This document shows positions 2,786 to 61,008 of a stretch of 64,000 nt of DNA, piece by piece (the stretch's first letter is position 1; each line of letters begins with the position of its first letter). The notes beneath the pieces are model-generated. The model was given only the letters and a program-made list of their open reading frames with translations. It did no database searches and was not told where the DNA came from. The stretch covers positions 198,725 to 262,724 of the forward strand of contig CANTCQ010000001.1 of NCBI GenBank assembly GCA_947652325.1, read 5' to 3'. Origin of the DNA: an uncultured Mycoplasmatota bacterium (GTDB lineage Bacteria; Bacillota_I; Bacilli_A; RF39; UBA660). The position numbers were made by a program, and so were the translations under genes.

Positions 2786-2872
2786 GCCTCTGTGGTGAAA
2801 TTGGTAGACGCGCTGGACTCAAAATCCAGTAGTAGCAATACTGTGCCAGTTCAAGTCTGGCCAGAGGCACCA
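2786..2872 (+). tRNA. tRNA-Leu (anticodon CAA), long variable arm, encoded CCA
   Basis: Cloverleaf read by eye. The acceptor stem is GCCTCTG/CAGAGGC, the anticodon loop is CT-CAA-AA, the variable arm is long, the T-loop is GTTCAAGTC and the 3' end is ACCA. An extended -10 (TGATATAAT) lies at about 2767-2778. Confidence 0.9.
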
Positions 2873-2884
2873 GAGTGATACCAG

Positions 2885-2924
2885 ACTCGAACTTTTAGTA
2901 AATTATAAGAGTTCGAGTTTTAAT
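2885..2924 (+). terminator. rho-independent terminator after tRNA-Leu, part of the conserved left-end module
   Basis: The hairpin ACTCGAAC..GTTCGAGT is followed by a T-rich tail. The same hairpin follows tRNA-Ala at about 44306-44345. Confidence 0.6.
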
Positions 2925-2970
2925 ATTCTTAAATTTATGATAAAATATCTGTAGAAATCTAATTGGTTTA

Positions 2971-3004
2971 TGTCAATTTAGTAAAACACACTTGCACATT
3001 GACA
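2971..3004. repeat. conserved palindromic leader motif, copy 1 (TGTCAATTTAGTAAAACACACTTGCACATTGACA)
   Basis: The outer arms TGTCAAT/ATTGACA are inverted. The motif recurs at 5210, 10794 and 44390. It lies downstream of a TGATAAAAT extended -10 at 2938-2946. Confidence 0.7.
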
Positions 3005-3040
3005 GTATCAATTTGCGAGTATATAGGAGAGTTAGGTATT

Positions 3041-3496
3041 GTGAATAAAGTAAGCTATTATTTTTTAAACCAAATGTATGATGTTCAAGCTTTATCTCAA
3101 GATTATCAAGAGCATTTATCTCAAGTTTATGAATATGGCAGTCATATGCTAAATTATAATATAGAAATAACTAAAGGAGATTTTCAGGAAGTATTTAATA
3201 CAATATATAGTATATTAAGATTTCGAATAGATGATAAAGATTTTGAAAAGGTTAGTGAACATTATTTAAAGCTTTTAATGGCTGATGCTAGGGATGGTAA
3301 TAATGTAAATGTAAATTGGTTTATTAACCATGTGTGGTATTTATGTGTTGGTATATCTAATGAGATTGACATTAAAACATATAGAGATTGTATTTCCTTT
3401 ATACAACAAATTTTGATAAAAAAGTTTGATATTCAAGAAAATATAAAAGAAAAAGTAAAAAGAAAAATCTACGCTAAGTTTATGACAAAATGTTAA
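3041..3496 (+). CDS. hypothetical protein (cassette 1)
   Basis: A GTG start lies 11 nt after AGGAGA. The upstream TTG start in the ORF track would read through the leader motif. The stop lies inside the right-end repeat. Confidence 0.5.
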   Translation: MNKVSYYFLNQMYDVQALSQDYQEHLSQVYEYGSHMLNYNIEITKGDFQEVFNTIYSILRFRIDDKDFEKVSEHYLKLLMADARDGNNVNVNWFINHVWYLCVGISNEIDIKTYRDCISFIQQILIKKFDIQENIKEKVKRKIYAKFMTKC

Positions 3497-4077
3497 TTTG
3501 TCCTTCCTTAGGGCACCAGATTGATGTGAAATGGCTTCGAAAAGTTAGAAAATCAGATGTATTTACTAAAATCACTCTTCGAGATTTACAAAATCAAATG
3601 AGATTACATTTTATTGAAACTTACAATAAGGAATATGGTTTAGAAGATATTCTAAACGCAAAAATGGAAGGTAGAAATGAAGGTTATACTAAACCTGAAA
3701 ATGTTAGAATTAAGAAACAACTTAAAACTCAAGAGAATAATTTAAAACGAGCTAAAGATAAATCTGATAAATTAGATAGTGCTACCAAAGAAGTAAAAGA
3801 AATATTAAATAATACCAAACTTACAGGATTTAATAAAAATCAGTGCGTATTATCTCTTAATGAAAAAGAGAAAATTGATGAATTTGTTAAGCAAGTAGAT
3901 AATACTAATAAAGAGTATCACAGAATACAAAAGTTATCAGCAACTTTAGAAGAAATGAATTCTAATCTTTTTAGAAGTGAACAACAAATTGCGTATCTTA
4001 CTATGAAAAATTCAAATTTAGAATCAGAAAATATTACTCTAAATAAAAAGTTAAATGAACAAGAAATTACTATTTGA
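3490..4077 (+). CDS. coiled-coil protein, possibly a 5'-truncated Mob/Pre-type relaxase remnant
   Basis: The apparent start runs through the junction repeat, so the N-terminus is probably lost. The protein has a long Lys/Glu/Asn coiled coil. Frame-broken continuation is visible to about 4320. The Mob/Pre resemblance is from memory only. Confidence 0.3.
   Translation: MLICPSLGHQIDVKWLRKVRKSDVFTKITLRDLQNQMRLHFIETYNKEYGLEDILNAKMEGRNEGYTKPENVRIKKQLKTQENNLKRAKDKSDKLDSATKEVKEILNNTKLTGFNKNQCVLSLNEKEKIDEFVKQVDNTNKEYHRIQKLSATLEEMNSNLFRSEQQIAYLTMKNSNLESENITLNKKLNEQEITI
3491..3525. repeat. cassette junction repeat (right end TTTGTCCTTCCTTAGGGCACCA + left end GATTGAT)
   Basis: GGGCACCA at 3511-3518 is followed directly by GATTGAT. 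The same GATTGAT follows the CCA of tRNA-Ala. Confidence 0.65.
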
Positions 4078-4323
4078 TAATTTAAAAGATGAAAATAAAA
4101 CTTTATCTTCTAAACTTAAATATTTTAAAGATATGTTTTACAATCTTGTTTGATTTTTAATGAATAAAGTCTTTAGGATTAAAGATAATAAGTATAAAGA
4201 TTTTGCTAAAGAATTATATAATCACGGAGCATTGGATAAAGAAAATTCTGAAGGTATAATGGTTATGCCTAAAGCTAATTATTCAAAAGAAATTGAAACA
4301 TTAAAAAAAGAAGATTTTGAGCT

Positions 4324-4797
4324 TTAATGCTTAAAATCTCCTTTTAAAATGCTGATATTTTTAGTTTTCTTTGGTATTGAATTTAAACTATAATTAATGT
4401 TGCCTTTATCACTTTCACTTATAATAAGTTTTGAAGAATCATATGAACAATTTCCGTCACTATCAATTGTAATTGTTCTTTCACCTTTTGTTATAATAAA
4501 TTTTTTTAATTGTCCATAATTTAAAGATATCATATCAGTGGTTTTATTATTTTTTTCATCTAATTTTCTTTTTACTTTTAATAAAAAACTTGGGTATTCA
4601 TTTACTGAACTTGTAGATATTTCACATATTTTTGTATAAACTTCATTGATTTCTAAAGGAAAAGTTAATCCTAATAAATATTGTTGTAATTGTTCTTCAT
4701 TTTCTAATTTAAATACATAATCACTGAAAACATCAACTTTAATACTTTTTTGATTATGATACCTATTTAGAGCTAATGGATTATTTAAAACAAGCAA
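4324..4797 (-). CDS. hypothetical protein
   Basis: 157-aa ORF on the opposite strand between two coiled-coil remnants. No recognisable motif. Confidence 0.4.
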   Translation of the reverse strand: MLVLNNPLALNRYHNQKSIKVDVFSDYVFKLENEEQLQQYLLGLTFPLEINEVYTKICEISTSSVNEYPSFLLKVKRKLDEKNNKTTDMISLNYGQLKKFIITKGERTITIDSDGNCSYDSSKLIISESDKGNINYSLNSIPKKTKNISILKGDFKH

Positions 4798-5183
4798 ATG
4801 AGGCAGTTAATAAAGTTGTTAAAAGCGAAGGCCTTTATAAAGAGTTGGAAAAAGAAATTAAATATTACAAAGCATTTTTAGCAATCAATGATGAAAAAGA
4901 TAATGAAATAAAATATTTAAAGAAAGAACTTGAAGAAGTAAATACCAAATATAATTCTTTAAAAAGTTTTATTTCTAATTTACTTCAATTACTAAAAGGT
5001 ATATTTAAGAAAATATTATCTATTGGTACTGATAAAGAAAAAGATTTAGTTAGTGAGCAATTAAAAGAATGTTATGATAATCATTTATATAGTGAAAATG
5101 ATATAAGTGATATTGTTAGAAACACACCCAAAGAGATAGAATTAACAAATTATATCGAAGAAAAGGACTACGATTATTTTTAA
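4776..5183 (+). CDS. coiled-coil hypothetical protein, possibly a second Mob/Pre C-terminal remnant
   Basis: Heptad-rich sequence paralogous in style to the 3490-4320 region. It ends in the hairpin GGACTACGATT..AATCGTAGTCC at 5165-5195. Confidence 0.35.
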   Translation: MDYLKQANEAVNKVVKSEGLYKELEKEIKYYKAFLAINDEKDNEIKYLKKELEEVNTKYNSLKSFISNLLQLLKGIFKKILSIGTDKEKDLVSEQLKECYDNHLYSENDISDIVRNTPKEIELTNYIEEKDYDYF

Positions 5184-5209
5184 AATCGTAGTCCATAAAT
5201 ACTAAATGG

Positions 5210-5259
5210 TGTCAATTTAGTAAACATACTTGTACATTGACATAATCAATGAACGTGTG
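5210..5259. repeat. conserved leader motif, copy 2 (TGTCAATTTAGTAAACATACTTGTACATTGACATAATCAATGAACGTGTG)
   Basis: Near-identical to copy 3 at 10792-10839 along its whole length. Confidence 0.7.
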
Positions 5260-5373
5260 CAAAAGAACTTATCCTTTTGAAACCAAGAAAATATTTATTA
5301 TTAGATATTATGTTTTATCTTTGAAACTATTATAAATCAAAAAAATAGTGTATAATTTTATATGGTGGTTGTT

Positions 5374-7107
5374 ATGAAAGAAACAAGAAAAAATTTAGGA
5401 AGAGTCTACCAATATGGGAAGAAATACAAGATTTTTTTAGTGCTAGAACTAATAGGATCAGTACTAGGCATTGTATTTAGTATAGTTATTCCAATATTGT
5501 CGGCACAGCAATTAGTCAAGTTTACGGATTCAGTATGGGACCAAGTAATTATTATAAGTAGTATTTTGTTTGGTGTAAGTATTCTTCAATGCTTATCAAA
5601 TATTTTAATTAGAAAAAGTTCTCAGTTTTTCTGGACAGGAATTGTCTCAACAATTAAGCTTAAACTAGGAAGAAAATTAGTAAAAACTGAACAAAAATAT
5701 ATTGATACTTCATCCTCAGGTGTTTTTATTCAAAGAATTGATAATGATACTGAAAATTTAGGTTCTATTTTTACTATTGGTTTAAATTATTTAACGGGGG
5801 TAATATCTAGCATTGGAGTTTTTATTGCTATTTTTATTATTAATAAACAAGTTTTTTTATATTTCCTTATTGTTTCAGTTATTTTATCTTTATTACATTT
5901 ATCTAAAATAAAAAAATATGGTAAAGAGTTTTCAATTTTTTTAAAACAAAGTGATAAAGTTACAAGTTTAGTAGGAGAATTAGTTAGAGGTGTTAGAGAT
6001 ATTAAAATGCTAAATGCTAAGGAAAACTTTCTCTCTAATTTTTATAATAATATTGAAATACAAAACAGAAATAAATATATTATGAGAAATACTGAACTAG
6101 CGTATAACTTTATCATCTCACTTTCTAAAGGAATGTTTGAACTAATACTTGTATTCATATTAATTTATTTAGTAAAAGGAGAAATTATAGAAATATCAAT
6201 AGCTGTAGTTTTATTCTCTTATAGAGCTAATGTAATGGAAAATTTTATGGAAAAGCTAGGCGATATGCTAACTGAAATCAAAAAGTTTAATATTTCTTGC
6301 AATAGGGTATTTTCTTTATTAGAAAATAGAGAATTTCCAAAAGAAGAATTTGGTAAAAAACATATTAATAACATTAAGGGGAATTTTGAATTTGATAATG
6401 TAACATTCGGGTACATAGAAGATTATCCAGTTTTAAAAAATATCTCATTTAAGATAAAAGAAAATGAAATGGTAGCTTTTGTTGGTAAAAGCGGTGCTGG
6501 AAAAACAACAATTTTTAATTTACTATGTAAAATATATGATATTGATAATGGAGTAATAAAGATTGATGGAGAAGATATAAAAAATCTAGATGAATATTCA
6601 ATTCGTGAAAACATTACCATTATTAGTCAAAATCCTTATATTTTTAACATGAGTATTCGAGATAACTTAAATTTAGTGAAAAAAGATTTAACAGAAGAGG
6701 AAATGATTGAAGCTTGTAGAATGGCATGTTTAGATGAATTTATTGATACCCTACCAGAAAAATATGACACAATTGTTGGAGAAGGTGGAGTAATTTTATC
6801 AGGAGGTCAAAGACAAAGATTAGCAATTGCTCGTGCATTTATCCAAGATACAAAAATAATATTATTTGATGAGGCTACTTCAGCATTAGATAACGAAACT
6901 CAAGAACATATACAACAGGCAATAAGCAACATGAAAGATAAATATACTATATTAATAATTGCTCATAGATTATCTACTATAGTTAATTCAGATAGAATAA
7001 TGTTAGTAGAAGATGGACATATTACAGATTCTGGTACACATAAAGAATTATTATTAAAAAATAAAACTTATAAAAAACTTTATGAAAACGAAATTTTGGA
7101 TAAATAA
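5374..7107 (+). CDS. ABC transporter, fused permease/ATP-binding exporter
   Basis: The N-terminal half is a six-helix hydrophobic domain. Walker A is GKSGAGKTT, the signature is LSGGQRQR and Walker B is ILFDEATSALD. The ATG at 5374 is preferred because a GGTGG RBS precedes it. Confidence 0.9.
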   Translation: MKETRKNLGRVYQYGKKYKIFLVLELIGSVLGIVFSIVIPILSAQQLVKFTDSVWDQVIIISSILFGVSILQCLSNILIRKSSQFFWTGIVSTIKLKLGRKLVKTEQKYIDTSSSGVFIQRIDNDTENLGSIFTIGLNYLTGVISSIGVFIAIFIINKQVFLYFLIVSVILSLLHLSKIKKYGKEFSIFLKQSDKVTSLVGELVRGVRDIKMLNAKENFLSNFYNNIEIQNRNKYIMRNTELAYNFIISLSKGMFELILVFILIYLVKGEIIEISIAVVLFSYRANVMENFMEKLGDMLTEIKKFNISCNRVFSLLENREFPKEEFGKKHINNIKGNFEFDNVTFGYIEDYPVLKNISFKIKENEMVAFVGKSGAGKTTIFNLLCKIYDIDNGVIKIDGEDIKNLDEYSIRENITIISQNPYIFNMSIRDNLNLVKKDLTEEEMIEACRMACLDEFIDTLPEKYDTIVGEGGVILSGGQRQRLAIARAFIQDTKIILFDEATSALDNETQEHIQQAISNMKDKYTILIIAHRLSTIVNSDRIMLVEDGHITDSGTHKELLLKNKTYKKLYENEILDK

Positions 7108-7130
7108 TAGAAGGAAATATTGTTATAATA

Positions 7131-7165
7131 TAGTCAGTTAATAAATTATTACTGACTATTTCTTT
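7131..7165 (+). terminator. rho-independent terminator after the ABC exporter
   Basis: Hairpin TAGTCAGT..ACTGACTA followed by TTTCTTT. Confidence 0.6.
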
Positions 7166-7173
7166 GCCTAGAT

Positions 7174-7226
7174 AGTTGTTGTACTTCTCTCTCTCGGGCA
7201 CCAGTAAGCAATCTGTCCGAACTTTT
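7174..7226. repeat. cassette junction repeat (AGTTGTTGTACTTCTCTCTCTCGGGCACCA + diverged left end GTAAGCAATCTGTCCGAACTTTTA)
   Basis: This is the best match to the right-end consensus. It is almost identical to 45274-45303. Confidence 0.7.
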
Positions 7227-7311
7227 ATAGTTTAGGGCTTAAATATATAAGTATCAATTTCTAAAGAAGTTGGTACTTTTTTAGTGTTTAAGAAAGAAAG
7301 GACAGGTTTAA

Positions 7312-7587
7312 ATGGTAAATATTACAAAGGAAAAATTAGAAATTGATAACGAATTAAAGAAAAAGATAGAATTTATATGTAGTTTTTGTAATACTACTCC
7401 AACTATTATTAATGGTAATATTAGAAAAATTAATAAGACAAATTTAAACTATATTGAACCTCATAGAATAATTATTAAAGGTATTACATTTCTAGCATTT
7501 AATTATTCTAATGAAATATTTGTTGAAAATTTATCTAAAAACATTAAATTATCAGATTTAGAAGACTTTATAAAACAAATAAACTAA
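7312..7587 (+). CDS. hypothetical protein
   Basis: 91-aa ORF with an upstream RBS-like AAGGA. No recognisable motifs. Confidence 0.4.
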   Translation: MVNITKEKLEIDNELKKKIEFICSFCNTTPTIINGNIRKINKTNLNYIEPHRIIIKGITFLAFNYSNEIFVENLSKNIKLSDLEDFIKQIN

Positions 7588-7741
7588 ATTATATATAAAT
7601 GTATTAACTTCTTCTAAAATTGCCTTTAAATAGGCAAAAAATGGTAATTATGCCTAGACTTTATATCAAAAGTATCTATAATAAGTAAGCAATAAAAGGA
7701 AGTTTTATGTTTTTGTGGGGGTTAATGTAAAACAAATATAA

Positions 7742-9436
<1,695 letters not shown>

Positions 9437-10363
9437 AAAAGCATAAGCATACTATAGAAATAATGAATAGGTATTTTTGTTTAAGTAATTTAACTGTTTT
9501 AAGTTATGACGTAAAAGGAAATCGTAGAGAAAATTTAGCTGAAGATTATTTTTATCAATATATTCAAGAACATAAGGAAGATATAGAAACAATAAAAGCA
9601 GTAGCATTAAAAATTAAAAATCTTGGATTTAATGAAATTACTTTTGGAGAAAAATTAGATTTTACTAAAACTGAATATGAGTTAGATACTTCATATGGAA
9701 GTGATTTTACTTTTTTAGAAAATATGGAAGTTAATTCTACGTATATAAATAGTCCAATTAAATACAGAACTAACGATTCATGTTATTGCATGATTTTAGG
9801 ATCTGTTGGATATGGTGATAATAAGGAAGTTAGTAAATATGGTAAAAATATAGAATTAAATAGTCTAATATTTGATTCAAATAGATTGCCAAATGAAATA
9901 ACAAGAGAATCTACTATAGAGCTTATTTACGAATTAGCACAAGAGAAAAAAGCAGAATATGAAGATATACGAGATTCTGTAGATTTAAGTATATCTACCA
10001 GCGATTTAAAAGATTATTTTGAGCGTTTGAAAGCAGTAACTGAAAGAATTGATAAAATAAAAGATAATCAAGAATTGATGAATTTATTAAATCAAATGCA
10101 AAATACATTGGTACAATTACAATTATTTGGAGTGAATTTTGAAAATCAAATAGTTGATTCTCATACAGATATTACAGATGAAACAATGAAAAGAGAGAAA
10201 AAAGTATATTTAAATAGAAGATATTGGGCTAGTATAGATATTGATTAAATATTATAAAATTTAATAAAGTGATAAAAACGGATTGCTACTTTTTTCATTA
10301 TTTGTTAAAATATTACTAGAAATTGATACAAACATTGTATTGATTACTGAATTTAGCGAAAAA

Positions 10364-10421
10364 AGTTTGAAATAACTTTCTTACTCGCACCAGATTGATA
10401 GAAAACTCGAACTTTTCGAGT
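10364..10421. repeat. cassette junction repeat (AGTTTGAAATAACTTTCTTACTCGCACCA + GATTGATAGAAAACTCGAACTTTTCGAGT)
   Basis: CACCAGATTGATAG matches the tRNA-Ala/island junction at 44289-44302 exactly. The agreement resumes at AAACTCGAACTTTT after a 1-nt difference. Confidence 0.7.
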
Positions 10422-10430
10422 ATTAAGTAA

Positions 10431-10456
10431 AACGACTTGTCAAAAAGTCGTTTTTA
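10431..10456 (+). terminator. rho-independent terminator
   Basis: Hairpin AACGACTT..AAGTCGTT followed by TTTT. Confidence 0.55.
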
Positions 10457-10499
10457 TGTTATTATGAATATGTCAAGGAAACTTGAATATAATAAAAAA

Positions 10500-10586
10500 G
10501 GGAATACTTAACCTTTCCATGTTGAGTGTTCGCCAAAGGTTTGGTTAGCACTTAATCTACGAAAGTAAATTGAGTGCTTTTTTCTT
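10500..10586 (+). ncRNA. putative antisense antitoxin sRNA, convergent with the small toxin ORF
   Basis: A TATAAT box lies at 10488-10493. The terminator hairpin AGCACTTAAT..ATTGAGTGCT plus a T-run sits at about 10549-10586. The toxin transcript would probably overlap it at the 3' end. Confidence 0.3.
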
Positions 10587-10597
10587 ATGATAGTTTA

Positions 10598-10681
10598 CTA
10601 AATTACAAAAGTAAAGAGTAAGGCTATGAGTAAGAAGATAATTAGAATAAGAGAAAGAATCAAAAAATCTTTCTTATGCAT
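10598..10681 (-). CDS. type I toxin-like small hydrophobic peptide (27 aa, MHKKDFLILSLILIIFLLIALLFTFVI)
   Basis: Not in the ORF track because it is too short. It has a strong RBS (AAAGGAGG, 8 nt before the ATG) and its own extended -10 (TGATATAAT, complement of 10744-10752). The 5' UTR can pair with the RBS region. Confidence 0.55.
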   Translation of the reverse strand: MHKKDFLILSLILIIFLLIALLFTFVI

Positions 10682-10776
10682 ATCATCAGCCTCCTTTCAC
10701 ATGAAAGTTGGCAAGCACTCAACGATTAAATATTCCTAATATAATTATATCAGGTTATTTATTTTATAACAATGTT

Positions 10777-10839
10777 GTTTACTAAATTTTGGCAATTTAG
10801 TAAACACATTTGTACACTGACATAATCATTGAACGTGTG
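10777..10839. repeat. conserved leader motif, copy 3, preceded by a perfect 12-bp inverted repeat
   Basis: GTTTACTAAATT (10777-10788) and AATTTAGTAAAC (10794-10805) are exact reverse complements. The motif continues as ACATTTGTACACTGACATAATCATTGAACGTGTG and runs directly into the RBS of the next gene. Confidence 0.7.
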
Positions 10840-10851
10840 TAGGAGGTACTT

Positions 10852-11544
10852 ATGAGGAAAACAGTAACAACATTATTTATGTTAGAATCATTAGATGGAA
10901 AAATTAATAGTGGTAATAGCGATAATCTTGATGCTGATAAAGATTGGTGTAGAATAACTGGAGTTAAGGAAGGATTACATCAATACTATGAAATTGAAGC
11001 TACTACAGATTTTTATTCATTAAATACTGGTAGAGTTATGGCTAAAATCGGAGTTAATGAAAGAACAGAATATCATAATAAAGTAGATTGCAGATTTATT
11101 ATTATAGATAATAAACCTCATTTAAATGAAAAAGGTATAGATTATATATGTCATTGGGTTGATAGACTTATACTTGTAACAACAAATAAAAATCATGTTG
11201 CATATTCATTGCAAGAAAAATATGATAATCTTGATATCTTATTTTATGATTCTTTAAATCTAAGTACTTTATTATCTGATATGGCAGAAAAATATAATGC
11301 AGAAGCAATTACAATTCAATCTGGTGGAACATTAAATGGAAAATTTTTAAGAGAAAATTTAATTGACTATGTTAATGTAGTTATTGCTCCATTATTGGTA
11401 GGTGGAAAAGATACATCAACTTTAATAGATGGAGAAGCAATAACTTCTTCTGAAGATCTTAATAAGTTAAAGGCTCTACAATTAATTGAGTGCAACCAAT
11501 TAGAAAATTCATATATTCAATTGAAATATAAAGTAATAAAATAA
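10852..11544 (+). CDS. dihydrofolate reductase-family / RibD C-terminal domain protein
   Basis: The N-terminal LFMLESLDGKIN and the C-terminal QSGGTLNGKFLRENLIDYVNVVIAPLLVGG match the RibD_C pattern. The RBS is TAGGAGG. Confidence 0.65.
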   Translation: MRKTVTTLFMLESLDGKINSGNSDNLDADKDWCRITGVKEGLHQYYEIEATTDFYSLNTGRVMAKIGVNERTEYHNKVDCRFIIIDNKPHLNEKGIDYICHWVDRLILVTTNKNHVAYSLQEKYDNLDILFYDSLNLSTLLSDMAEKYNAEAITIQSGGTLNGKFLRENLIDYVNVVIAPLLVGGKDTSTLIDGEAITSSEDLNKLKALQLIECNQLENSYIQLKYKVIK

Positions 11545-11545
11545 A

Positions 11546-11598
11546 AGTTGTTGAACGTCCTCCCTTAGGGCACCATAATGTGATTAACTTGAACCCTC
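11546..11598. repeat. cassette junction repeat (AGTTGTTGAACGTCCTCCCTTAGGGCACCA + TAATGTGATTAACTTGAACC)
   Basis: The right-end consensus starts 2 nt after the stop codon of the preceding gene. Confidence 0.65.
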
Positions 11599-38524: not shown

Positions 38525-40956
38525 ATGGAAGAAAAGAAAAATTTCCCAACTAGAAAAAGTGTGGGGGGGGGATATTAGATAAAAAGTCCCTAAATAGTCT
38601 AGAAAAGAAAATATTTTTAATTATAAGTATTTTATGTTTTTCAATATTAATAGTAGGAATAACATATGCGTATATAGCATATTATACAAATCAAAAAGGA
38701 ATCAATGTGTTAGAAACAGATTGTGTACATATAGATATGGAAGATTTAAGTGAAGGAATAAGTCTAAGAAATGCTTACCCCTTAACAGATGAACAAGGAT
38801 ATAATACAAAACCATATCGATTTCGTATAACAAATACATGTAATATAGGAGTAGATTATAATGTAAATATAGAAGTATTTGATATAGCAAATAGAATGTC
38901 TAGTAAAAATGTAGCAGCAAAAGTAGACGAGTTTGAAAAGAAAATATTGACAAGTGAAATAAGTACAACTCCTACTTATACTGGAGATGAAGGAACATCA
39001 ATAGAGAGTTATAATGTATATACAAATACACTTTCACCAGGAGAAAGTAAAAGTCATGATATAAGAATATGGTTAGATGAGAGTGCAGGAAATGATTCTC
39101 AAAATAAAGAATTTAAAAGTAAAATAGTAATAGAAGCAATACAAAATCAAATAGCGCAGATGACATTTAGTGAATATATTATAGACCAAAGCAAGTCACA
39201 AGATAGAGGAATAGAGAGAATAGAACATGAAGCAACAGAACAAATTCCGGCTTTAACGGATTATAGATATACAGGAGCAAATCCAAATAATTATGTATAT
39301 TTTGGATGTAGTGAAAATTGTACAGAAGAGAATCTATATCGAATTATAGGAGTAATACCAACACAAAGTAGCGAAAATGGAGCATATGAAAACCGTGTAA
39401 AGTTAATCAAAGCAAGTGAATATATTGGCCCTAATGCTGAGGATGGTTCAAGATTTACTCCAAGTGGAAAAGGATATAAATGGAATGCAGATGGAAATAA
39501 TAAATGGGAAGAAAGTACATTAAAAGAAGAGTTAAACACAGAATACTGGAATAGTTTAGAAGAATATCAAAAATATATAGAACCTTCAAAATGGTATTTA
39601 GGGTCTCCACTTGGTGAGAAACAATCAACATATACTTCTGAACAATTTTATAAAGAAGAGCGAAGCAAAACGCCAGGATATAGTCAGGGAGCAATATCCT
39701 ATATAGATAATATAGGATTAATGTACCCAAGTGATTATGGCTATTCACTAGAAAAAAAATATAGAGAACCATCTATTTATGAAAACGAATTACATTATAG
39801 GAGTCAAGCATGGCTATATAATATGGAAGAAAAATATTATGAATGGACAATAACTCCAGAAAATACAAGTCAGGATTTTGTAAAAGTGTGGGTAGTCGAT
39901 AAACAAGGAAGAATAGATTATTATCGAGCTTATTATGATAATTATTTATTTATTGCCCGACCAACCTTTTATTTAAAGAGTAGTATAATGTATGGGGGAG
40001 GATTAGGTACAAAAGAAGAACCATTTCAAATAATAGAAAATTCCAATCGAATGAGTGATTATATAATAGCAAAAAGTACAACCGATGAGACAATAGAAAA
40101 AGTGAGTCATGAAGCAACAGAACAAACTCCGACTTTAACGGATTATAGATATACAGGAGCAAATCCAAATAATTATGTATGTTTTGGCTATGAAGGAGAA
40201 AGATGTCCAGATGAAAATTTATATCGAATTATAGGAGTAATACCAACGCAAAGTAGCGAAAATGGAGCATATGAAAATCGTGTAAAGTTAATCAAAACAA
40301 GTAATTATGTAGAAAATGAGAGTGGTTATTTAGAAAATAGTATTGGTCCTGCTACTCCAGAAGGAACAGGTTATCGTTGGAATAAAGATGCTAATATTAA
40401 TAATTGGGAAGAGAGTTCATTGAATACTAAAGTTTTAAATAATATATATTGGAACTCTTTAGGAGAATATCAAAAATATATAGAATCATCAAAATGGTAT
40501 TTAGGTTCATTAAACAATGATATGTATGAATTATATACAGTAGGAAATTTATATAATGTAGAAAGAAGCAATGTTTCTTCTTATAGTGGTGGAGCAACAT
40601 TCTACATAAGTAATATTGGTTTAATGTATCCAAGTGATTATGGATATTCCATATCAAAAGAATATTGGAATAATAATAGTATAAGTAATTATCAAAATGA
40701 ATATATAAAAAATGCATGGTTATATAATTTAAGTGGTGGAGAATACGTAGAATGGTTGATTTCTGCTTCACATGATTTTCCAAATGGCAGTGTTTCTGCA
40801 TGGAATATTGGATATACTGGAAATATTTGGGGAGGTTTTAGTGTAATTTATTTTGCTCAAGTGTATGCAATACGTCCTACCTTTTATTTGAAATCTAGTG
40901 TATTATTTCGAGGAGGAGAAGGAACAATAGATAATCCTTATTATTTATCAATATGA
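38525..40956 (+). CDS. phase-variable surface-anchored protein with two tandem modules of about 294 aa, currently frameshifted at a G9 tract
   Basis: The ATG at 38525 follows a GGAGGA RBS. With G9 the reading frame stops at 38576-38578. One extra G joins it to the long ORF (track entry 38707-40956), which is open back to 38572 and encodes the signal anchor KKIFLIISILCFSILIVGITYAYIAYY. Confidence 0.7.
38563..38571 (+). repeat. homopolymeric G9 tract inside the 5' coding region
   Basis: The nine G residues were counted directly from the sequence. Confidence 0.95.
39226..39420 (+). repeat. near-identical internal direct repeat, copy 1 (partner at 40108-40300)
   Basis: CATGAAGCAACAGAACAAA.TCCG.CTTTAACGGATTATAGATATACAGGAGCAAATCCAAATAATTATGTAT and TATATCGAATTATAGGAGTAATACCAAC.CAAAGTAGCGAAAATGGAGCATATGAAAA.CGTGTAAAGTTAATCAAA are shared with copy 2, 882 nt downstream. 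Confidence 0.85.
40108..40300 (+). repeat. near-identical internal direct repeat, copy 2
   Basis: See copy 1 at 39226-39420. Confidence 0.85.
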
Positions 40957-44216: not shown

Positions 44217-44293
44217 GGGGAATTAGCTCAGCTGGCTAGAGCACCACGTTTGCACCGTGGGGGTCAAGGGTTCGAATCCCTTATTCTCCACCA
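44217..44293 (+). tRNA. tRNA-Ala (anticodon UGC), encoded CCA
   Basis: The acceptor stem GGGGAAT/ATTCTCC carries the G3:U70 identity pair. The anticodon arm is CCACG-TTTGCAC-CGTGG and the T-loop is GGTTCGAATCC. A promoter (TTGCGA-17-TATCAT with TG) lies at 44175-44203. Confidence 0.92.
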
Positions 44294-44389
44294 GATTGAT
44301 AGGAAACTCGAACTTTTAGATTTTATGAGGGTTCGAGTTTTAATATATCTAAATTTATGATAGAATATTTATAGAAATTAAATTGAATA

Positions 44390-44434
44390 TGTCAATTTAG
44401 TAAACACACTTGCTCATTGCATATGTCAATGAGC
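44390..44434. repeat. conserved leader motif, copy 4 (TGTCAATTTAGTAAACACACTTGCTCATTGCATATGTCAATGAGC)
   Basis: The first 24 nt match copy 1 apart from a 1-nt length difference in the A-run. It lies downstream of a TGATAGAAT extended -10 at 44358-44366. Confidence 0.7.
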
Positions 44435-44461
44435 TTAATAAGCAAGTATTAGGGGATACTA

Positions 44462-45272
44462 ATGGATAAGATAAAGAATATAGAAAAATATATAGATACA
44501 GTTAAGTTGCATAGTAATTTTTTTAAAAAGTATTATTTTCATTTTAACTAAACTGGATTCTATTTTACACCATGGGATACTATCTAAAAATCTAATTCAA
44601 CAAAAATATTTACCTAGTCTTTATACACATGATGGTCGCGATTTTGATTCAAAAAATGGAAATACTTATGTATCTTTAACTCGATATACAGATAATTGCG
44701 AATTTTCTACTATGTTTGAGTCGTTTCCACTTCATACTTTGACATGTCTATCACTATTAGTAAATAAATCTATTAATGTAGAAAAACAAGGAGAAAGAGA
44801 AACATTTTTTGATGATGAATTGTTTTGTTTGGATTCAATTCCAAATTCAAACCTTGAGGGAATTATTCTTCCTGAACATTTATCTACACTATTAATTAGT
44901 GAAGTTAATTGTTTACCAAATGATCTTTCTTGCTATACTAAATCTTATCTTAATCATTGGATAGATTGTATGCAAAGATATTTTAATACAGCCTTACCGT
45001 ATGAAGTGATTGAAGAGATAAAAGCTAGTCATGAGCAATTATGGGATATTTTAGAAGAGTATGAAAATCCAGATAGATGGGTGCAATCTGCAATTAGAAC
45101 ACAACGTGATCAGTATGGTAAAGATTTAAAAGATGTTCTTGCAAATATATTACAAAACTTATGGTCAAAAAAATTTGATATATCTAATCCAACATATATA
45201 GATGTTTTAATGAGAGTAAATGACAACCAATTACCAGTTTATGAAATAAAGCAGAAAAAACGAATAATTTAA
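44462..45272 (+). pseudogene. hypothetical protein, frameshifted in a T7/A5 run
   Basis: The ATG at 44462 (RBS AGGGGA) reads 29 codons to a TAA. The long downstream frame (track ORF 44712-45272) is open back to 44496. Loss of one T in the run at 44518-44524 would fuse the two frames. Confidence 0.5.
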
Positions 45273-45273
45273 A

Positions 45274-45327
45274 ATTTGTTGTACTTCTCTTTTTTGGGCA
45301 CCATTAAAGGATTATACGAACCACTTC
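45274..45327. repeat. cassette junction repeat (ATTTGTTGTACTTCTCTTTTTTGGGCACCA + TTAAAGGATTATACGAACC)
   Basis: Nearly identical to 7174-7203. It starts 2 nt after the stop of the preceding gene. Confidence 0.7.
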
Positions 45328-45365
45328 TATATTTCGTAGAAGGGTTCGCAACCATTAGAACAATA

Positions 45366-45394
45366 AAAAGAGACGCAAAATAGCGTCTTTTTTT
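45366..45394 (+). terminator. rho-independent terminator
   Basis: Hairpin AGACGC..GCGTCT followed by a T7 run. Confidence 0.65.
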
Positions 45395-45467
45395 ATGCAT
45401 AAATGGTTATTTATTGTCGATTGGTGATATAATAGATTTACGAAGTATCTTTGCAGGAGGTTTAAAA

Positions 45468-46586
45468 ATGAAGGATAATGTTTTTAATATAAATATTTAC
45501 GAAACAGTAGCAAATTCATCAGAATACATACCTATTATTATCGGAGGATTATTTGGATTAACAACTTTAATGTTAGCAGTATTCTCTTTAATAAGTAATG
45601 ATGTAACAAAAAAAACTTCTGGTTTTTCTCTTATCAATCTAAAAAGATATAAAAGATGGCTTTTACTTTTGCCAATATATTTGGTTTTCATAACAACATT
45701 TCTTATGATGTTCTTTGAAAGTCTTAACAATGAAACTTTTTTGTTCATTAGTACAGTTGTAATTATATTAGTGGTTTCTTTACAAACAAACTTTATACTA
45801 CAGCCTTTATATAATCAAAATAAATGTAAACAAGCAATAATTAAAAATAGAGTTAATTCATTCAAGAAAAAAATAAAGAAATCTAAAACGAATAATAAAA
45901 TTGAAGAAATATTAGAGAATGAAAAAGTAGAGCTATTTGACTTGATAGCATTTGATAATGAAGAAAATAAATATGTTTTACTAAATGACAAAAAAATTAT
46001 CTATACTTCATATATCGAAGTTCTTAGAGAAAAGAAAGAATCTATGAATGAAAGTTTAAATATTAGTTTAATAGAAATAGGAATAAATATATTTGGAGAT
46101 GATTTTGTGGATATTTCAAGTGATTTTGAATTTCCTGAAATAATATTACTAGATGTATTTTTAAATAGAAATAAAACAAAATTTAGTATTTCACTACATC
46201 AAAGAAATTTAGAGTTGATTCATACATTGTTTGAATCACATAGGAATGGTGCTCCTATTGAAACAATTTATAATGACGAACAAATAATATTATTTTTAAC
46301 TCAAACTGTTATGAATCCAGAGGCAATGATTTTTATTTTAAATTATATTTTTGATACAGCTAATTGGAGCTATAGCGATTCATCTTTCATCAAGTTCTTA
46401 TTATCTGTTTTTTCAAATTCATTTCATATATTTTCTAAAATGTATGAAACATATCTTAACGAAGAAACATATAAAAGATTTGAAGATATTATGATTAATT
46501 TTAAAAACAAAAAGGAATTGAAAAAAGAAAATGATGAATTTGATATTAGATTTAATTTAATCATTAAAACTTTAAGTGAGGTATAG
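45468..46586 (+). CDS. hypothetical membrane protein (3 N-terminal TM helices plus a cytoplasmic domain)
   Basis: The ATG at 45468 follows an AGGAGG RBS. The hydrophobic segments are IPIIIGGLFGLTTLMLAVFSLI, LLLLPIYLVFITTFLMMFF and FLFISTVVIILVVSL. Confidence 0.55.
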   Translation: MKDNVFNINIYETVANSSEYIPIIIGGLFGLTTLMLAVFSLISNDVTKKTSGFSLINLKRYKRWLLLLPIYLVFITTFLMMFFESLNNETFLFISTVVIILVVSLQTNFILQPLYNQNKCKQAIIKNRVNSFKKKIKKSKTNNKIEEILENEKVELFDLIAFDNEENKYVLLNDKKIIYTSYIEVLREKKESMNESLNISLIEIGINIFGDDFVDISSDFEFPEIILLDVFLNRNKTKFSISLHQRNLELIHTLFESHRNGAPIETIYNDEQIILFLTQTVMNPEAMIFILNYIFDTANWSYSDSSFIKFLLSVFSNSFHIFSKMYETYLNEETYKRFEDIMINFKNKKELKKENDEFDIRFNLIIKTLSEV

Positions 46587-46587
46587 T

Positions 46588-49515
46588 ATGAAAAAAAATT
46601 ATTCTGTATATTATTCGGTTTCTAACGATGAACTAGATAATTTCTATAATGGAGAAAATATTGATTTTAAAATCGATGTTATAGACTTTCTAAGACATAT
46701 AGATAAAAATGATGAGTCATATGAAAAAATGAAACAATGTTATAAAATAAAAACACTTACACAGAAGCAAATTGAAAGATTAAATTTCATACAATATCTT
46801 CATTTTTTATCAAAAAAGGATGATTATAACGCAAAAAAAGTAAAACGCGAATTAAAAAAAGGCTCAATTTATAATGATGATTTTTTATTTGATTTTTGTG
46901 AAGTTGATACATTTGAAGAACATATAAAACTTTTTGATGATAATATAACTAGTGGAAAAATAATCAAAAGTATTTATAAAAATAAGTTTCACAAAAGTAA
47001 TATGGAATATTTATATATGGAAAATTTAAATAGAGAAGCAAATGTATTTAACGATAAATATTTAGAGAAAAAAATTAAAAAGCATATGATTCGAATTTTG
47101 AAAAAAGAAAAACTAACAATCCTAGAATTTTTGTATATATGGCAAATAATTATTTTAGTTAAAGCTCATTTTGTTGCTTTAAAGTTTATGCGTGACGAAT
47201 TATTTCTTGATGCTATGTTGGTAGAAAAAGCATTAAATAAATTTATAGTGTTTAAAAACAATTACTCAAATGTTTTTTCAAAAAAACAAATAATTGATTT
47301 TAATGAAACCATTGTTTCAATTTATAGATTACTGGGTAGTAGAATAAATATTTCTGAAGATGACTTTAAAGAAAATCAAAAAAAGTGTGTTAAATTTATT
47401 GATAGTAATGCTAGTTTGTTAAATCGTAATACAGTTTTTCTTAAAACAATATTTAATGGTGGAAAAATTAGTAAAGACAAAGTAATCAGTGAGATAAAAG
47501 ATATCTTAAATAATAAGTCATCTGGAGAAGTTATGTATTTAGCCTTTCTTGGAACTAGTGAATTAAAACCTGAACAATACACTTCTTATATCCAAGAATT
47601 AGAAAATATACAATATGATAAATCAAAAATAGAAGAAATTAATTTACAATCTTTAAACTTTGCGATAGAAATAATTAAATTCTGGAGTGGTGGTAAATTT
47701 AATCTAACCTTTTTAAAATCTAATATGTATTTAGACCCCTTTTTAAGATTGTGTTTTGAATATGATAATCAAAATATTAATTATAATCAATTTCTCGACA
47801 GATTAAATGGGATAAATTATATACCAGTTTCTATAATATTAGATTGGAATAGATTAGAAAAAATGTTTGAAAAAACAAATTCTTATGAATGGTTTAAAAA
47901 AATTGTTAGCAAAATGGATTACGATGAATTAAAATATTTTAGATTAAAAAGTTATTTAATTAATTTCTATTCCAAAATCATACATAAGGATAATGTATTA
48001 TTACTTAGCAATTTTTCGGAAATGGATTCTTTTATTAGAACAATATTTGATGACATTATTTATTTATACTATTCTATTATTATCCATATCAATGTTTATA
48101 GAAATTTTGATAAAAGTGTAAAAGAATCAATAATAACTATCATTCAAGATTTCAATATCTTAGAGAAAACCTTGACAGATAAACAATACCTTATTGAATT
48201 TGTGTATCTTCTAGTATCACTAAGTATTGAGTCCGAAGATAAGGATTTGAAAGAATCACTTCTAGAACTAATCATTAATAATGATATATTAAAAGATAAT
48301 AATATATTGATATTCGGATTGACTTATGACAATGATAAAGTGTTGTTAAAACATTATGATTCAATATTTGACTCGATTTTAAATTACTATAATGACATTA
48401 AGAATGTAAATAAAAATGATTATATGTTAATATCTCAAATTACTTATAATTCTTTAACGAATCGCGTTAATATCAATGAAATTCCTAAGAATCATTATTT
48501 TTCTAAAAATGGTAAGAATTATATTTTAAAAAATGATTATGACGATAATTTAAAAGATTTATATACTGATTTAAAAATCGAAAAAATTGAAGAGACATCA
48601 GATGATATGGTAGAATATAACCTTCTAGACCTCCTAACTCATAGGATATTCTTTGCTAATGTTGAAAAAATGAAAGCAGGAAAAGTTATTAAAACCTCAA
48701 AAGATGTAACTGGAGAAGAATTACTAAAAGAAATGGAAAAAGCAATTGGTTATGATAAAACACGAAAAGACCTAGAACTTATTCGCTCTGGAAAATCTTT
48801 AAGTTCAGTATGGTTTAATATTTATACAATGCACAATTACTTTAAAGATGTTGAGCAAGCTAATACAAAAATGTTTAATAATTCGAGAAATGAATTGATT
48901 AGAGTAGATAATGCATTGTTACACTTTTCATCATTAATTCTAGCTGTAAAATTAGGTTTGAAGGACATAATATTAAGTGATGATAGAATGTTTATTACTA
49001 GTTCAGTATATGAAGATTTAATGTATCAAAAAACATTTGAAATATCAGAATTAACTGATGGTATAATTGAACCTAGAATTAATTATGATGATTTGTTTGA
49101 TAATGTATGTATTTTAGTAAGTGAGATGAACGATAAATCAAGAGTAATCAGCATTACAAAAGCAAACATTATGGGAACAAAACATATAGATTATATAAAT
49201 AAATATGACCAAGACTTATTTAAATTCTTTGTAAATACTAATGATAGCAATAGATATTTCCTTATTACTGAAGACCCATTTTATTATAAAGTAGATGGTT
49301 TTAAGGAAAGGTCATTTAGTTTATATAGTTATGTAGTAGAAAAATTTATTCAAAATGATATTGATAGTGTTAGATTGTTGGAAATAACTGAAAAATTATA
49401 TTTTTGCAATTATAACTTCAATGTGAGTAAGAGTTTATTCAATTTTTTATTAGAAAAATCGGATGATGATAATATACGAAAAATTATAGAAAAAATAAAA
49501 ACCTCTGTAATATAG
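46588..49515 (+). CDS. large hypothetical protein (about 975 aa), mostly helical, with possible C-terminal PIN-like region
   Basis: The start is 2 nt after the upstream stop. No Walker motifs are present. There is an R-x6-H motif (RVDNALLH). The C-terminal part has IILSDDRMF, SVYEDL and YFLITEDPFY, which resemble PIN acidic motifs. This is a weak call made by eye. Confidence 0.55.
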   Translation: MKKNYSVYYSVSNDELDNFYNGENIDFKIDVIDFLRHIDKNDESYEKMKQCYKIKTLTQKQIERLNFIQYLHFLSKKDDYNAKKVKRELKKGSIYNDDFLFDFCEVDTFEEHIKLFDDNITSGKIIKSIYKNKFHKSNMEYLYMENLNREANVFNDKYLEKKIKKHMIRILKKEKLTILEFLYIWQIIILVKAHFVALKFMRDELFLDAMLVEKALNKFIVFKNNYSNVFSKKQIIDFNETIVSIYRLLGSRINISEDDFKENQKKCVKFIDSNASLLNRNTVFLKTIFNGGKISKDKVISEIKDILNNKSSGEVMYLAFLGTSELKPEQYTSYIQELENIQYDKSKIEEINLQSLNFAIEIIKFWSGGKFNLTFLKSNMYLDPFLRLCFEYDNQNINYNQFLDRLNGINYIPVSIILDWNRLEKMFEKTNSYEWFKKIVSKMDYDELKYFRLKSYLINFYSKIIHKDNVLLLSNFSEMDSFIRTIFDDIIYLYYSIIIHINVYRNFDKSVKESIITIIQDFNILEKTLTDKQYLIEFVYLLVSLSIESEDKDLKESLLELIINNDILKDNNILIFGLTYDNDKVLLKHYDSIFDSILNYYNDIKNVNKNDYMLISQITYNSLTNRVNINEIPKNHYFSKNGKNYILKNDYDDNLKDLYTDLKIEKIEETSDDMVEYNLLDLLTHRIFFANVEKMKAGKVIKTSKDVTGEELLKEMEKAIGYDKTRKDLELIRSGKSLSSVWFNIYTMHNYFKDVEQANTKMFNNSRNELIRVDNALLHFSSLILAVKLGLKDIILSDDRMFITSSVYEDLMYQKTFEISELTDGIIEPRINYDDLFDNVCILVSEMNDKSRVISITKANIMGTKHIDYINKYDQDLFKFFVNTNDSNRYFLITEDPFYYKVDGFKERSFSLYSYVVEKFIQNDIDSVRLLEITEKLYFCNYNFNVSKSLFNFLLEKSDDDNIRKIIEKIKTSVI

Positions 49516-49522
49516 ATAAAAG

Positions 49523-49547
49523 CATTTCTATTGTGAAATGTTTTTTT
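49523..49547 (+). terminator. rho-independent terminator
   Basis: Hairpin CATTTC..GAAATG followed by a T7 run. Confidence 0.6.
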
Positions 49548-50128: not shown

Positions 50129-50232
50129 ATGGAAAACTCGCTCCTCTCTACTTGATTTTCGAAATTATTTACTGTACAATAAATACGGAAATGCGAAATA
50201 ACAAATAAAATATTTCATAAAACCTAAATTAA

Positions 50233-50385: not shown

Positions 50386-50386
50386 A

Positions 50387-60968: not shown

Positions 60969-61008
60969 TAAATAAGGTATATATATTAATTTTGAGAGGT
61001 ATTTTAAA

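Follow-up and report, generated by a model that had tools for sequence, protein, structure and literature searches.

Directly downstream of the tRNA-Ala(UGC) gene in the window analysed here (the whole stretch of 64,000 nucleotides from contig CANTCQ010000001.1 of an uncultured Mycoplasmatota bacterium) lies a discrete unit of 1,010 bp, termed cassette E5 (44294-45303), which begins exactly after the CCA of the tRNA gene. It comprises a left module with a strong hairpin, a putative promoter, a conserved leader, one gene and a right end (Table 1). The first-pass annotation of this DNA regarded it as a second copy of a cassette architecture seen behind a tRNA-Leu gene, and this description proved accurate. 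We consider it likely that E5 is a non-autonomous, single-gene integrative cassette from a family mobilised by a large serine recombinase (LSR), which uses the 3' ends of tRNA and transfer-messenger RNA (tmRNA) genes as its chromosomal attachment site. Such cassettes are widespread in uncultured gut bacteria, are stacked at the 3' ends of many different tRNA genes, and apparently form an undescribed family.

The cassette at tRNA-Ala and its counterpart at tRNA-Leu

The left parts of the two cassettes (2873-3004 and 44294-44422) had been judged by eye to be colinear and identical at about four-fifths of positions; pairwise alignment gives 111 identities over 134 positions (82.8%), against 52% +/- 3.5% for random 130-nt pairs from this AT-rich window. 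All of the proposed shared elements were found in order: GA(T/G)TGATA, the ACTCGAAC/GTTCGAGT hairpin, TGATA(A/G)AAT and ATGTCAATTTAGTAAA. The hairpin has a stem of 15-16 bp followed by a U run, with a folding energy of -18.5 to -19 kcal/mol (z ~ -5.4). The right ends (7174-7203 and 45274-45303), described earlier as almost identical, agree at 26 of 30 positions, and the pattern GTTGTTGTACTTCTCT(N5)GGGCACCA, allowing up to three mismatches, matches only these two sites in the window, with an expectation of 0. As had been argued, the right end of E5 is not derived from the host tRNA: tRNA-Ala ends in TCTCCACCA and tRNA-Leu in GAGGCACCA, while the right end finishes with GGGCACCA. Searching for repeats and scanning every ..CCA site added two left modules and three right ends to those already noticed, and two more leaders were also present (Table 1).

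The description of the gene itself required two corrections. The stop codon occupies 45270-45272, which leaves a gap of 1 nt, not 2 nt, before the right end. The "single" open reading frame (ORF) is indeed one gene, but it is a frameshifted version of a gene for 277 aa, from which 17 nt near 44546 are missing by comparison with intact homologues; the six near-identical contigs that reach across it all give a reading of 186 aa. The cargo family consists of 277-aa proteins in 116 clusters, with intact homologues of up to 93% identity. No Pfam match was obtained for it, and a PDB sequence search with the cargo profile returned nothing. The structural model of the family (pLDDT 94) gave Foldseek matches to DarT, CteC, the cholera and pertussis toxins and pierisin (E values 0.04-0.5, TM-scores ~0.3). 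The predicted fold thus shows a weak but consistent resemblance to ADP-ribosyltransferases, which serves as a lead and not as an assignment.

There is no LSR gene inside E5, which makes the cassette non-autonomous. Since the only LSR gene of the window is decayed and the E5 cargo is frameshifted, this copy is probably an immobile, inactivated fossil, unless an LSR is supplied by the rest of the genome.

Exact boundaries and exchange of cargo

The limits of E5 are sharply defined by a 1,013-bp cassette in locus L156 (L-numbers denote loci or contigs fetched from other genomes or metagenomes), which carries a cargo 77% identical at the amino acid level and follows a non-tRNA right end. The homology between the two cassettes starts at the border between CACCA and GA and stops immediately after GGGCACCA, and their flanks are unrelated. 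The E5 cargo also occurs as the second cassette at tRNA-Leu(CAA) in L154 and adjoins tRNA-Leu(CAA) in L158-L161. Similarly, the cargo of cassette E3 of the window recurs in L127 (88% amino acid identity), where it occupies the first cassette at tRNA-Leu(CAG) and lies behind a left module of another class. Among 36 units with both ends identified, 24 are only 0.57-1.5 kb long, and nearly all of these contain a single ORF of at least 50 aa.

Such small units could be deletion remnants of larger LSR elements, spread with whole arrays or elements or by homologous recombination between end modules. Several features of the window speak for this scenario: unit E1b lacks an LSR yet retains the 135-aa gene that is core to LSR elements, the LSR of unit E2 is decayed, degenerate ends are present (the left module at 3519 and a right-end remnant near 12228), and the conserved modules of 50-130 nt would support homologous exchange. 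Additionally, no circular form of a cassette was seen. Nevertheless, decay by deletion would not repeatedly regenerate precise ends around single genes, and the 24 small, nearly all single-ORF units have canonical ends on both sides. The exact shared boundaries, near-equal length and unrelated flanks of E5 and the L156 cassette, and the presence of the same cargo behind different left-module classes in E3 and L127, point in the same direction. We regard the remnant explanation as unlikely; the small units are better understood as cassettes in their own right.

Unoccupied tRNA-Ala sites

The first-pass annotation proposed a search for empty tRNA-Ala sites in related strains. Relatives of the tRNA-Ala flank were retrieved via a DUF2779 protein. 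L136 (89% identity) has the module and a different cargo after tRNA-Ala, and L144 also carries the module. In L149 (80%), L146 (77%) and L151 (68%), tRNA-Ala is followed by a plain intrinsic terminator and no module. Precise excision of E5 would leave TCTCCACCA joined to TTAAAGGATTATACG, and the excised circle would carry the junction ..TTTTTTGGGCACCA joined to GATTGATAGGAAACTCGAACTTTTAGATT. A metagenome scan for the predicted excision junction CTCCACCATTAAAGGATTATACG gave one contig, L162, in which the CCA of tRNA-Ala is fused directly to TTAAAGGATTATACGAAC.., the sequence that follows the right end of E5 in the window. When E5 is removed from the window in silico, the product is colinear with L162 over the tRNA (70/77 positions), the first 18 nt after CCA (18/18) and the compared region overall (72/110); the DNA upstream of tRNA-Ala is unrelated. 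L162 belongs to a different organism; it shows what the site looks like uninterrupted and does not document an excision. Empty sites were thus found in four relatives, all of which lack the module together with the cassette, but not among near-identical strains, where every site is occupied.

Other arrangements were also encountered at this locus. L139, which has no tRNA-Ala after rpoZ, and L140 are uninformative on the empty site. In L140/L141 (~9329-10276) an inverted tRNA-Ala adjoins a 315-aa reverse transcriptase (RVT_1), and the LSR encoded upstream is unrelated (26% identity); the tRNA-Ala hotspot has here received an insertion of a different kind. Several contigs of the window's own species (L007-L010) end within or just after tRNA-Ala or its left module. 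Should the genome contain the module in multiple copies, breaks in the assembly would be expected at these points.

Distribution of the left module

The pattern CCA+GAKTGATA(N4)ACTCGAAC matched six viral contigs and, in GTDB species representatives, at least 119 stretches from about 105 assemblies among the matches listed. The genome matches come almost exclusively from uncultured gut metagenome-assembled genomes labelled Bacilli, Tenericutes, Mycoplasma, Erysipelotrichaceae or Acholeplasma sp. CAG:878. Within the fetched loci, the module lies directly after 102 tRNA or tmRNA genes, representing 18 tRNA species and 12 tmRNA genes; the hosts include Thr-GGT (18), Leu-CAA (17), Ala-UGC (13), Leu-TAG (8), Arg-CCT (7), Gly-TCC (6) and others. 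CCA precedes 133 of 136 distinct modules (up to three mismatches) in the form of CACCA (110), CTCCA (19) or TACCA (4), and no tRNA with G73 carries the module in these loci. At about 35 further junctions the module is preceded by non-tRNA sequence with the consensus AAAAAGTTnnAAAnAnnnTCnnCnnTCGCACCA. This consensus is the right end of a preceding unit, so that such junctions mark units in tandem.

The occurrence of the block after many tRNAs in many genomes, and its hairpin and T run, which make a good terminator, might suggest a lineage-specific, vertically inherited tRNA terminator/promoter unit unrelated to mobility, an outcome that the first-pass annotation itself named as fatal to its claim. 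The block is, however, missing after 55 of the 157 tRNA and tmRNA genes in the fetched loci, which have ordinary flanks or terminators. These include Arg-CCT, Thr-CGT, Leu-TAA, Lys-CTT, Gly-GCC and Phe genes, that is, species that carry the module elsewhere, and tRNA-Arg(CCT) of the window also lacks it. Moreover, different species and different tRNAs share a near-identical module and downstream sequence, despite the differences between the tRNAs. The empty tRNA-Ala loci (L149, L146, L151 and L162) and the tRNA-less junctions already refute vertical inheritance of such a block, and we see almost no chance that it is the correct account. The proposal of an element-encoded site that recombines at the ..CCA of different tRNAs, by comparison, fits the range of hosts, at least 19 tRNA species plus tmRNA, and the near-identical recombinases found at different tRNAs.

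Two initial interpretations of the distribution data were abandoned. The viral contigs are not phages with the module as attP: the prophage ends abut tRNA-Cys or tRNA-Gly fragments, and separate cassettes or LSR elements follow. The right-end pattern was not found in the viral contigs, and BLAST of the tRNA-Ala locus against phage and plasmid collections gave matches to the tRNA only. Terminal right ends are also not always followed by native tRNA trailers, as some of the following sequences are variant left ends of other element families (L036, L074). These other left-end families (TTGACGAATCTGTTCGAAC / GTAAGCAATCTGTCCGAAC and TAAGATAAAATCGTCGCAC; L036, L074, L093, L109 and window 7204-7230) in some cases adjoin LSRs only 44-49% identical to those of the main family, which suggests a wider superfamily of elements targeting tRNA 3' ends.

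A large serine recombinase as the likely mobilising enzyme

The first-pass annotation named no enzyme. A tblastn search with the L012 LSR as a query revealed intact LSR homologues 450-600 nt downstream of the tRNA-module junction, on the same strand, at at least 17 loci. Their targets are Thr-GGT, Gly-TCC, Leu-TAG, Leu-CAA, Phe and Arg-ACG tRNA genes and tmRNA. The L012 and L037 proteins contain all three Pfam domains Resolvase, Recombinase and Zn_ribbon_recom; the gene of L037 lies at 3808-5463. The LSR-bearing units extend over 3-7.4 kb from the junction to the next right end, and these right ends are of the same type as in E1, E3 and E5, e.g., AGTTGTTGTACTTCTCTCTCTCGGGCACCA. Between the module and the LSR gene, at about 35 loci, lies an ORF of ~90 aa with a CxxC motif, homologous to the ORF at 7312-7587 of the window. 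It has no Pfam, PHROGs or PADLOC match and is a candidate directionality factor or regulator. LSRs at different targets can be very similar: 96% identity for tmRNA and tRNA-Phe, 94.5% for Thr-GGT and Leu-CAA, and 89% for Gly-TCC and Leu-CAA, which indicates that one enzyme lineage uses many tRNA genes. The LSR is the only recombinase consistently present near the junctions, and it is most likely the mover of E5-type cassettes.

In principle, the LSR could be a frequent passenger and the cassettes could be moved by a tyrosine recombinase acting on folded ends, as for integron attC, or by an HUH transposase of the insertion sequence (IS) family IS200/IS605 that inserts single-stranded DNA 3' of CACCA. 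The geometry resembles that of HUH elements, with insertion just 3' of a fixed pentamer that is repeated at the right end, no terminal inverted repeats or duplication, a strong left-end hairpin and a small dyad in many right ends. A tyrosine integrase is also encoded just upstream of the junction in one viral contig. This integrase (L012), however, belongs to a separate element with its own 19-nt tRNA-Gly fragment. Neither a Y1/HUH transposase nor TnpB or IntI was detected by Pfam in 20 window ORFs across the cassette arrays and flanks, and the right ends of E5 and E1 have no convincing hairpin. Together with the fixed distance and orientation of the LSR relative to the junction at at least 17 loci, these data make another enzyme very unlikely and favour the LSR.

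Attachment sites and proposed mechanism

In the scheme that we propose, attP would be formed by the right end (P arm, ~30 bp ending in ..GGGCACCA) joined to the left module (P' arm, GATTGATAGGAAACTCGAAC..). The attB site would extend from the T arm of the tRNA to N73-CCA, with the tRNA 3' half as its left arm, and through the first ~20 bp of the trailer. Strand exchange would take place at the dinucleotide C72-N73, i.e., CA for most tRNAs and CT for Gly and Cys. Exchange at this position would rebuild the tRNA intact and leave only CACCA common to both junctions, and since each integration would recreate a usable site, elements would accumulate in tandem. Autonomous members (3-7 kb) would carry the LSR gene ~0.5 kb inside the left end, behind the 90-aa ORF, and the one-gene cassettes (0.6-1.5 kb) with the same ends would move in trans. 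The left-module hairpin would terminate the transcript of the tRNA or of the preceding cassette, and the extended -10 promoter and conserved structured leader, as read from the sequence, would then express the cargo.

The proposed crossover position refines the earlier idea of recombination at CCA. The two junctions of a unit share only the core CACCA (CTCCA at U73 tRNAs); in nine other arrays, 5-7 nt are common to both. At position -6 the tRNA and the right end carry different bases (C and G, respectively, at tRNA-Ala and tmRNA; A and G at tRNA-Arg). Position -4, the discriminator, tracks the tRNA: the right end is GGGCTCCA at tRNA-Gly (L038) and GGGCACCA at tRNA-Leu (L090), while the two right ends are otherwise identical and the LSRs of these loci are 89% identical. 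Given the 2-bp crossover of serine recombinases, these patterns and the lack of G73 hosts lead us to infer exchange at C72-N73 and not inside CCA. The best symmetry axis between P and the reverse complement of P' falls between -5 and -4, with a span of 52 bp (score 13.3, next axis 10.1). In attL, the tRNA T-loop (GGTTCRAnTCC) and TCGAAC of the left module are mirror motifs, the P' motif lying ~3 bp further out than the T-loop motif; CGAAC is also present in the hairpin stems of native trailers, L162, L089 and L112. The symmetry and the mirror motifs seem to fit an LSR attP x attB scheme without proving it.

A number of observations weigh against the proposed cassette mobilisation by an LSR. 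No recombination product was seen, neither a circular cassette nor an occupied/empty polymorphism inside one population, and all near-identical strains identified by the rpoZ look-up are occupied by E5. L162 and L149 come from species other than that of the window, and for this reason their "empty" sites were never occupied or have lost the cassette, and are not demonstrably excised. The sole LSR of the 64-kb window is a pseudogene. The symmetry signal of attP is modest (13.3 versus 10.1 for the next axis), and the P/P' motifs are shifted outward by ~3 bp relative to the tRNA arm, versus 5 bp at characterised LSR sites, a shift reportedly seen in the Listeria A118 integrase-DNA structure. The discriminator argument comes from one clean pair and a few GCTCCA right ends. 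A dyad of 4-6 bp with a spacer of 6-7 nt is frequent in the right ends, between -30 and -15, e.g., AAGTTTGAAATAACTT at 10363-10380 of the window and GTAGATATCTAC in L093. This small dyad is T-arm-like in shape, not in sequence; there is no obvious need for it in an LSR that binds double-stranded DNA, and the LSR model leaves it unexplained. Finally, the loci were gathered with a pattern that requires CCA, so the frequencies given above are biased by retrieval.

A broader picture can be drawn only tentatively, and we hold it to be slightly less probable than its opposite. In this picture, an integron-like cassette system is built on an LSR that reads generic features of tRNA genes (T arm, C72-N73-CCA, trailer hairpin), so nearly any A73 or U73 tRNA or tmRNA gene would be a docking platform. 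One-gene cassettes, each self-contained with its terminator, promoter, structured leader and ORF, would be acquired, lined up in tandem and exchanged in trans by gut Bacilli with reduced genomes. Type I toxin-antitoxin cassettes would stabilise the arrays, and the specificity could be retargeted via the discriminator base of attP.

The tandem array at tRNA-Leu(CAA)

The extra left modules and right ends behind tRNA-Leu(CAA) reveal that this locus is a tandem array of at least four units (Table 1). The 135-aa gene of E1b is of the type found in LSR elements. The LSR of E2 is frameshifted and truncated, with Pfam Resolvase at 7805-8269, a Recombinase fragment at 8275-8634 and pieces detectable by tblastn to ~9016. 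The left module of E3 is the third canonical copy in the window and is preceded by CTCGCACCA, not by a tRNA. No credible Pfam, PHROGs or PADLOC match was found for the small ORFs of E5, E1a and E2. Beyond E3 lies a decayed remnant. The 103-aa ORF of this decayed unit (11867-12149) has a 63%-identical paralog at 60691-60973; the paralog was ruled out as a further cassette, as it has no end modules.

Table 1. Coordinates of tRNA genes, cassettes and their parts in the 64-kb window.
Feature	Position	Strand	Evidence or remarks
tRNA-Leu(CAA), head of the array	2786..2872	+	ARAGORN and Rfam
Cassette E1a: left module, putative promoter, leader, 151-aa ORF (3041-3496), right end ..TTAGGGCACCA (3491-3518)	2873..3518	+	
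Unit E1b: degenerate left module at 3519, 135-aa gene (4776-5183), leader 5209, ABC transporter (5362-7107), right end 7174-7203	3519..7203	+	
Unit E2, LSR element: variant left end GTAAGCAATCTGTCCGAAC, 91-aa ORF (7312-7587), decayed LSR (7805-~9016), right end ..CTTACTCGCACCA (10360-10392)	7204..10392	+	
Cassette E3: left module (10393), toxin-antitoxin-like block (10440-10750), leader 10789, RibD_C-domain ORF (10852-11544), right end 11548-11575	10393..11575	+	
Leader copies	2965-3030, 5204-5268, 10784-10848, 44384-44448		motif at 2970, 5209, 10789, 44389
tRNA-Ala(UGC)	44217..44293	+	ARAGORN and Rfam; module begins at the base after CCA
Cassette E5, complete, 1,010 bp, non-autonomous integrative (likely)	44294..45303	+	colinear end to end with the 1,013-bp L156 cassette; uninterrupted site in L162
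E5 left module	44294..44341	+	invariant 20 nt GATTGATAGGAAACTCGAAC (putative P' recombinase arm); consensus exact over 111 junctions
E5 left-module 16-bp hairpin and T run	44303-44341	+	fold energy
Extended -10 promoter TGATAGAAT (putative function)	44358..44366	+	read from sequence; kept in class D modules of other loci
Conserved leader (..ATGTCAATTTAGTAAACACACTTG..)	44380..44437	+	hairpin GCTCATTG/CAATGAGC at 44412-44434; four window copies
E5 cargo gene, frameshifted copy of the 277-aa family	44463..45272	+	translation; intact homologues
E5 right end ATTTGTTGTACTTCTCTTTTTTGGGCACCA (putative P arm)	45274..45303	+	LSR elements and cassettes of at least 20 other species have the same type of end
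Native tRNA-Ala trailer (putative B' arm: TTAAAGGATTATACGAACC..GGTTCG hairpin)	45304..45395	+	same sequence directly after tRNA-Ala CCA in L162
Intrinsic terminator in tRNA-Ala trailer	45371-45388	+	terminator scan
tRNA-Arg(CCT)	55199-55274		ARAGORN and Rfam

The leader and the toxin-antitoxin-like block

The leader has the form ACTAAATtttGTCAATTTAGtAAACACACTTGyAyATTG-loop-CAATrtGCGTGTG and is present in 44 distinct copies across species. Its inner 8-bp hairpin GCTCATTG/CAATGAGC covaries, with 33 compensatory cells in the 44 copies against 10 on average and at most 23 in shuffled data, and two of its positions show three pair types each. The 5' hairpin (ACTAAAT/ATTTAGT) showed no covariation beyond shuffles, and RNAalifold gave no consensus for the leader. 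The TTGACA in the leader was considered as a -35 box and dropped, as no conserved -10 follows. In LSR elements the leader comes after the conserved 135-aa gene.

A block of ~350 nt, called class C, is conserved in the window (10440-10750), in L136 (9330-9650) and in many "class C" left modules. It contains a promoter-like TTGTCAAAAAGTCGTTTTTATGTTATTATGA and a putative small RNA (GGGAATACTTAACCTTTCCATG..GAGTGCTTTTTT) on the plus strand at ~10497-10585. Convergently, on the minus strand, a GGAGG ribosome-binding site precedes a 27-aa hydrophobic ORF, MHKKDFLILSLILIIFLLIALLFTFVI (~10703-10620). Judged by this arrangement, the block resembles a type I toxin-antitoxin module carried along in the arrays. 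Rfam, at both gathering and permissive thresholds, returned no family for the left module, the leader or the class C block.

The rest of the tRNA-Ala island and other features of the window

The core shared with relatives resumes at the 96-aa gene at 50489 of the window. In L149, the plain terminator after tRNA-Ala is directly followed by the ortholog of this gene, so the tRNA-Ala island of the window extends from 44294 to ~50400, with E5 as its tRNA-proximal unit. The remaining part (45414-50400) encodes 390-aa and 979-aa ORFs with no Pfam match and a GC content of ~22%, plus a reverse-strand 93-aa ORF; none of the three had a tblastn match in L136 or in the fetched loci outside the window's species. 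Elsewhere, the 749-aa ORF at 38707-40956 contains an internal tandem duplication of ~885-903 nt (39210-40665, 80-90% identity), corresponding to a repeated protein domain.

Significance and comparison with known systems

The described loci probably form a system of LSR integrative elements plus non-autonomous cassettes in integron-like arrays. If the proposed mechanism is true, its setting is a large uncultured, genome-reduced gut branch without such mobile elements described in the literature searched, and it would explain the location of a good part of the accessory genes and the assembly breaks at tRNA genes. For LSR elements or cassettes that occupy the 3' ends of several tRNA genes, or that reside in RF39-type bacteria, full-text literature searches, which covered part of the journals, gave no description. 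Genome engineering makes use of LSRs, and tRNA genes offer landing pads that are universal; an LSR lineage that accepts many tRNA genes, with the specificity apparently set by C72-N73, would be of practical interest. The structured leader and the toxin-antitoxin-like block would be uncharacterised regulatory parts travelling with the cassettes.

As in known LSR elements, a recombinase with Resolvase, Recombinase and zinc-ribbon domains is encoded near the attachment site, and attL and attR share a very short core with no long direct repeats. The site logic is closest to that of the staphylococcal cassette chromosome mec (SCCmec) and pseudo-SCC elements of staphylococci, in which the Ccr LSRs act at the 3' end of rlmH/orfX and the gene is kept functional. 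The common features are the LSR, the 3' end of a conserved gene, tandem accretion, a short core and recombinase-less units that share the ends and would need the enzyme in trans. The differences lie in the targets, many tRNA and tmRNA 3' ends instead of one protein gene, and in the units, which here can measure no more than 0.6 kb and carry one gene, a promoter of their own and a conserved leader, in uncultured gut Bacilli hosts.

Accretion is also known for cis-mobilizable elements (CIMEs) and integrative and conjugative elements in streptococci, and XerCD-dependent pdif modules occur on Acinetobacter plasmids; these depend on tyrosine/Xer enzymes and on dif-like sites or specific genes. They resemble the present cassettes as non-autonomous modules bounded by recombination sites, with an enzyme acting in trans, tandem arrangement and modular exchange. 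In contrast, the recombinases and target sites differ, and neither CIMEs nor pdif modules have a link to tRNA 3' ends. Integrative and mobilizable elements are reviewed in PMC5704250.

Classical islands and prophages at tRNA and tmRNA genes (Islander type, PMC4383910) likewise target the 3' part of the gene and restore it. There, however, a tyrosine integrase splits the gene, the displaced tRNA fragment is tens of nt long and each integrase uses one tDNA, none of which applies here. Of 937 tycheposons of Prochlorococcus and related elements, 910 rely on tyrosine recombinases, and partial copies of the tRNA flank them (bioRxiv 10.1101/2020.12.28.424599). Similarly to the elements described here, tycheposons bring cargo to several tRNA genes, push older elements inward and leave degenerate remnants that build islands in streamlined genomes (bioRxiv 10.1101/2020.12.28.424599). 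Unlike in tycheposons, the right ends here share only 5-7 nt with the tRNA, contain no T-arm sequence and are not tRNA fragments; moreover, one LSR lineage serves many tRNAs and recombinase-less one-gene cassettes predominate.

The features of transposable elements were also looked for. With regard to IS200/IS605 elements and palindrome-associated transposable elements, no Y1 HUH TnpA was found among the window ORFs scanned (the fetched loci were covered only in part), and a strong hairpin is present at the left end only. With regard to miniature inverted-repeat transposable elements and classical ISs, the ends are not inverted copies of each other, and nothing is repeated except the CACCA core, with which the tRNA also ends.

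The overall organisation is reminiscent of integrons: arrays of small, mostly one-gene cassettes have conserved recombination ends, cargo is shuffled between arrays, and a toxin-antitoxin-like block rides in the array. The differences are nevertheless substantial. No Phage_integrase or IntI is present among the 20 window ORFs scanned, there is no attI or common Pc promoter, and the arrays start at tRNA genes. Integron cassettes are promoterless, whereas each cassette here has its own terminator, putative extended -10 promoter and leader. No attC-like palindrome occurs in the right ends of E1 and E5, and the associated enzyme is a serine recombinase. If the proposed mechanism is true, these arrays would represent a second, independent route to gene-cassette arrays, with a serine instead of a tyrosine recombinase and tRNA 3' ends in place of attI.

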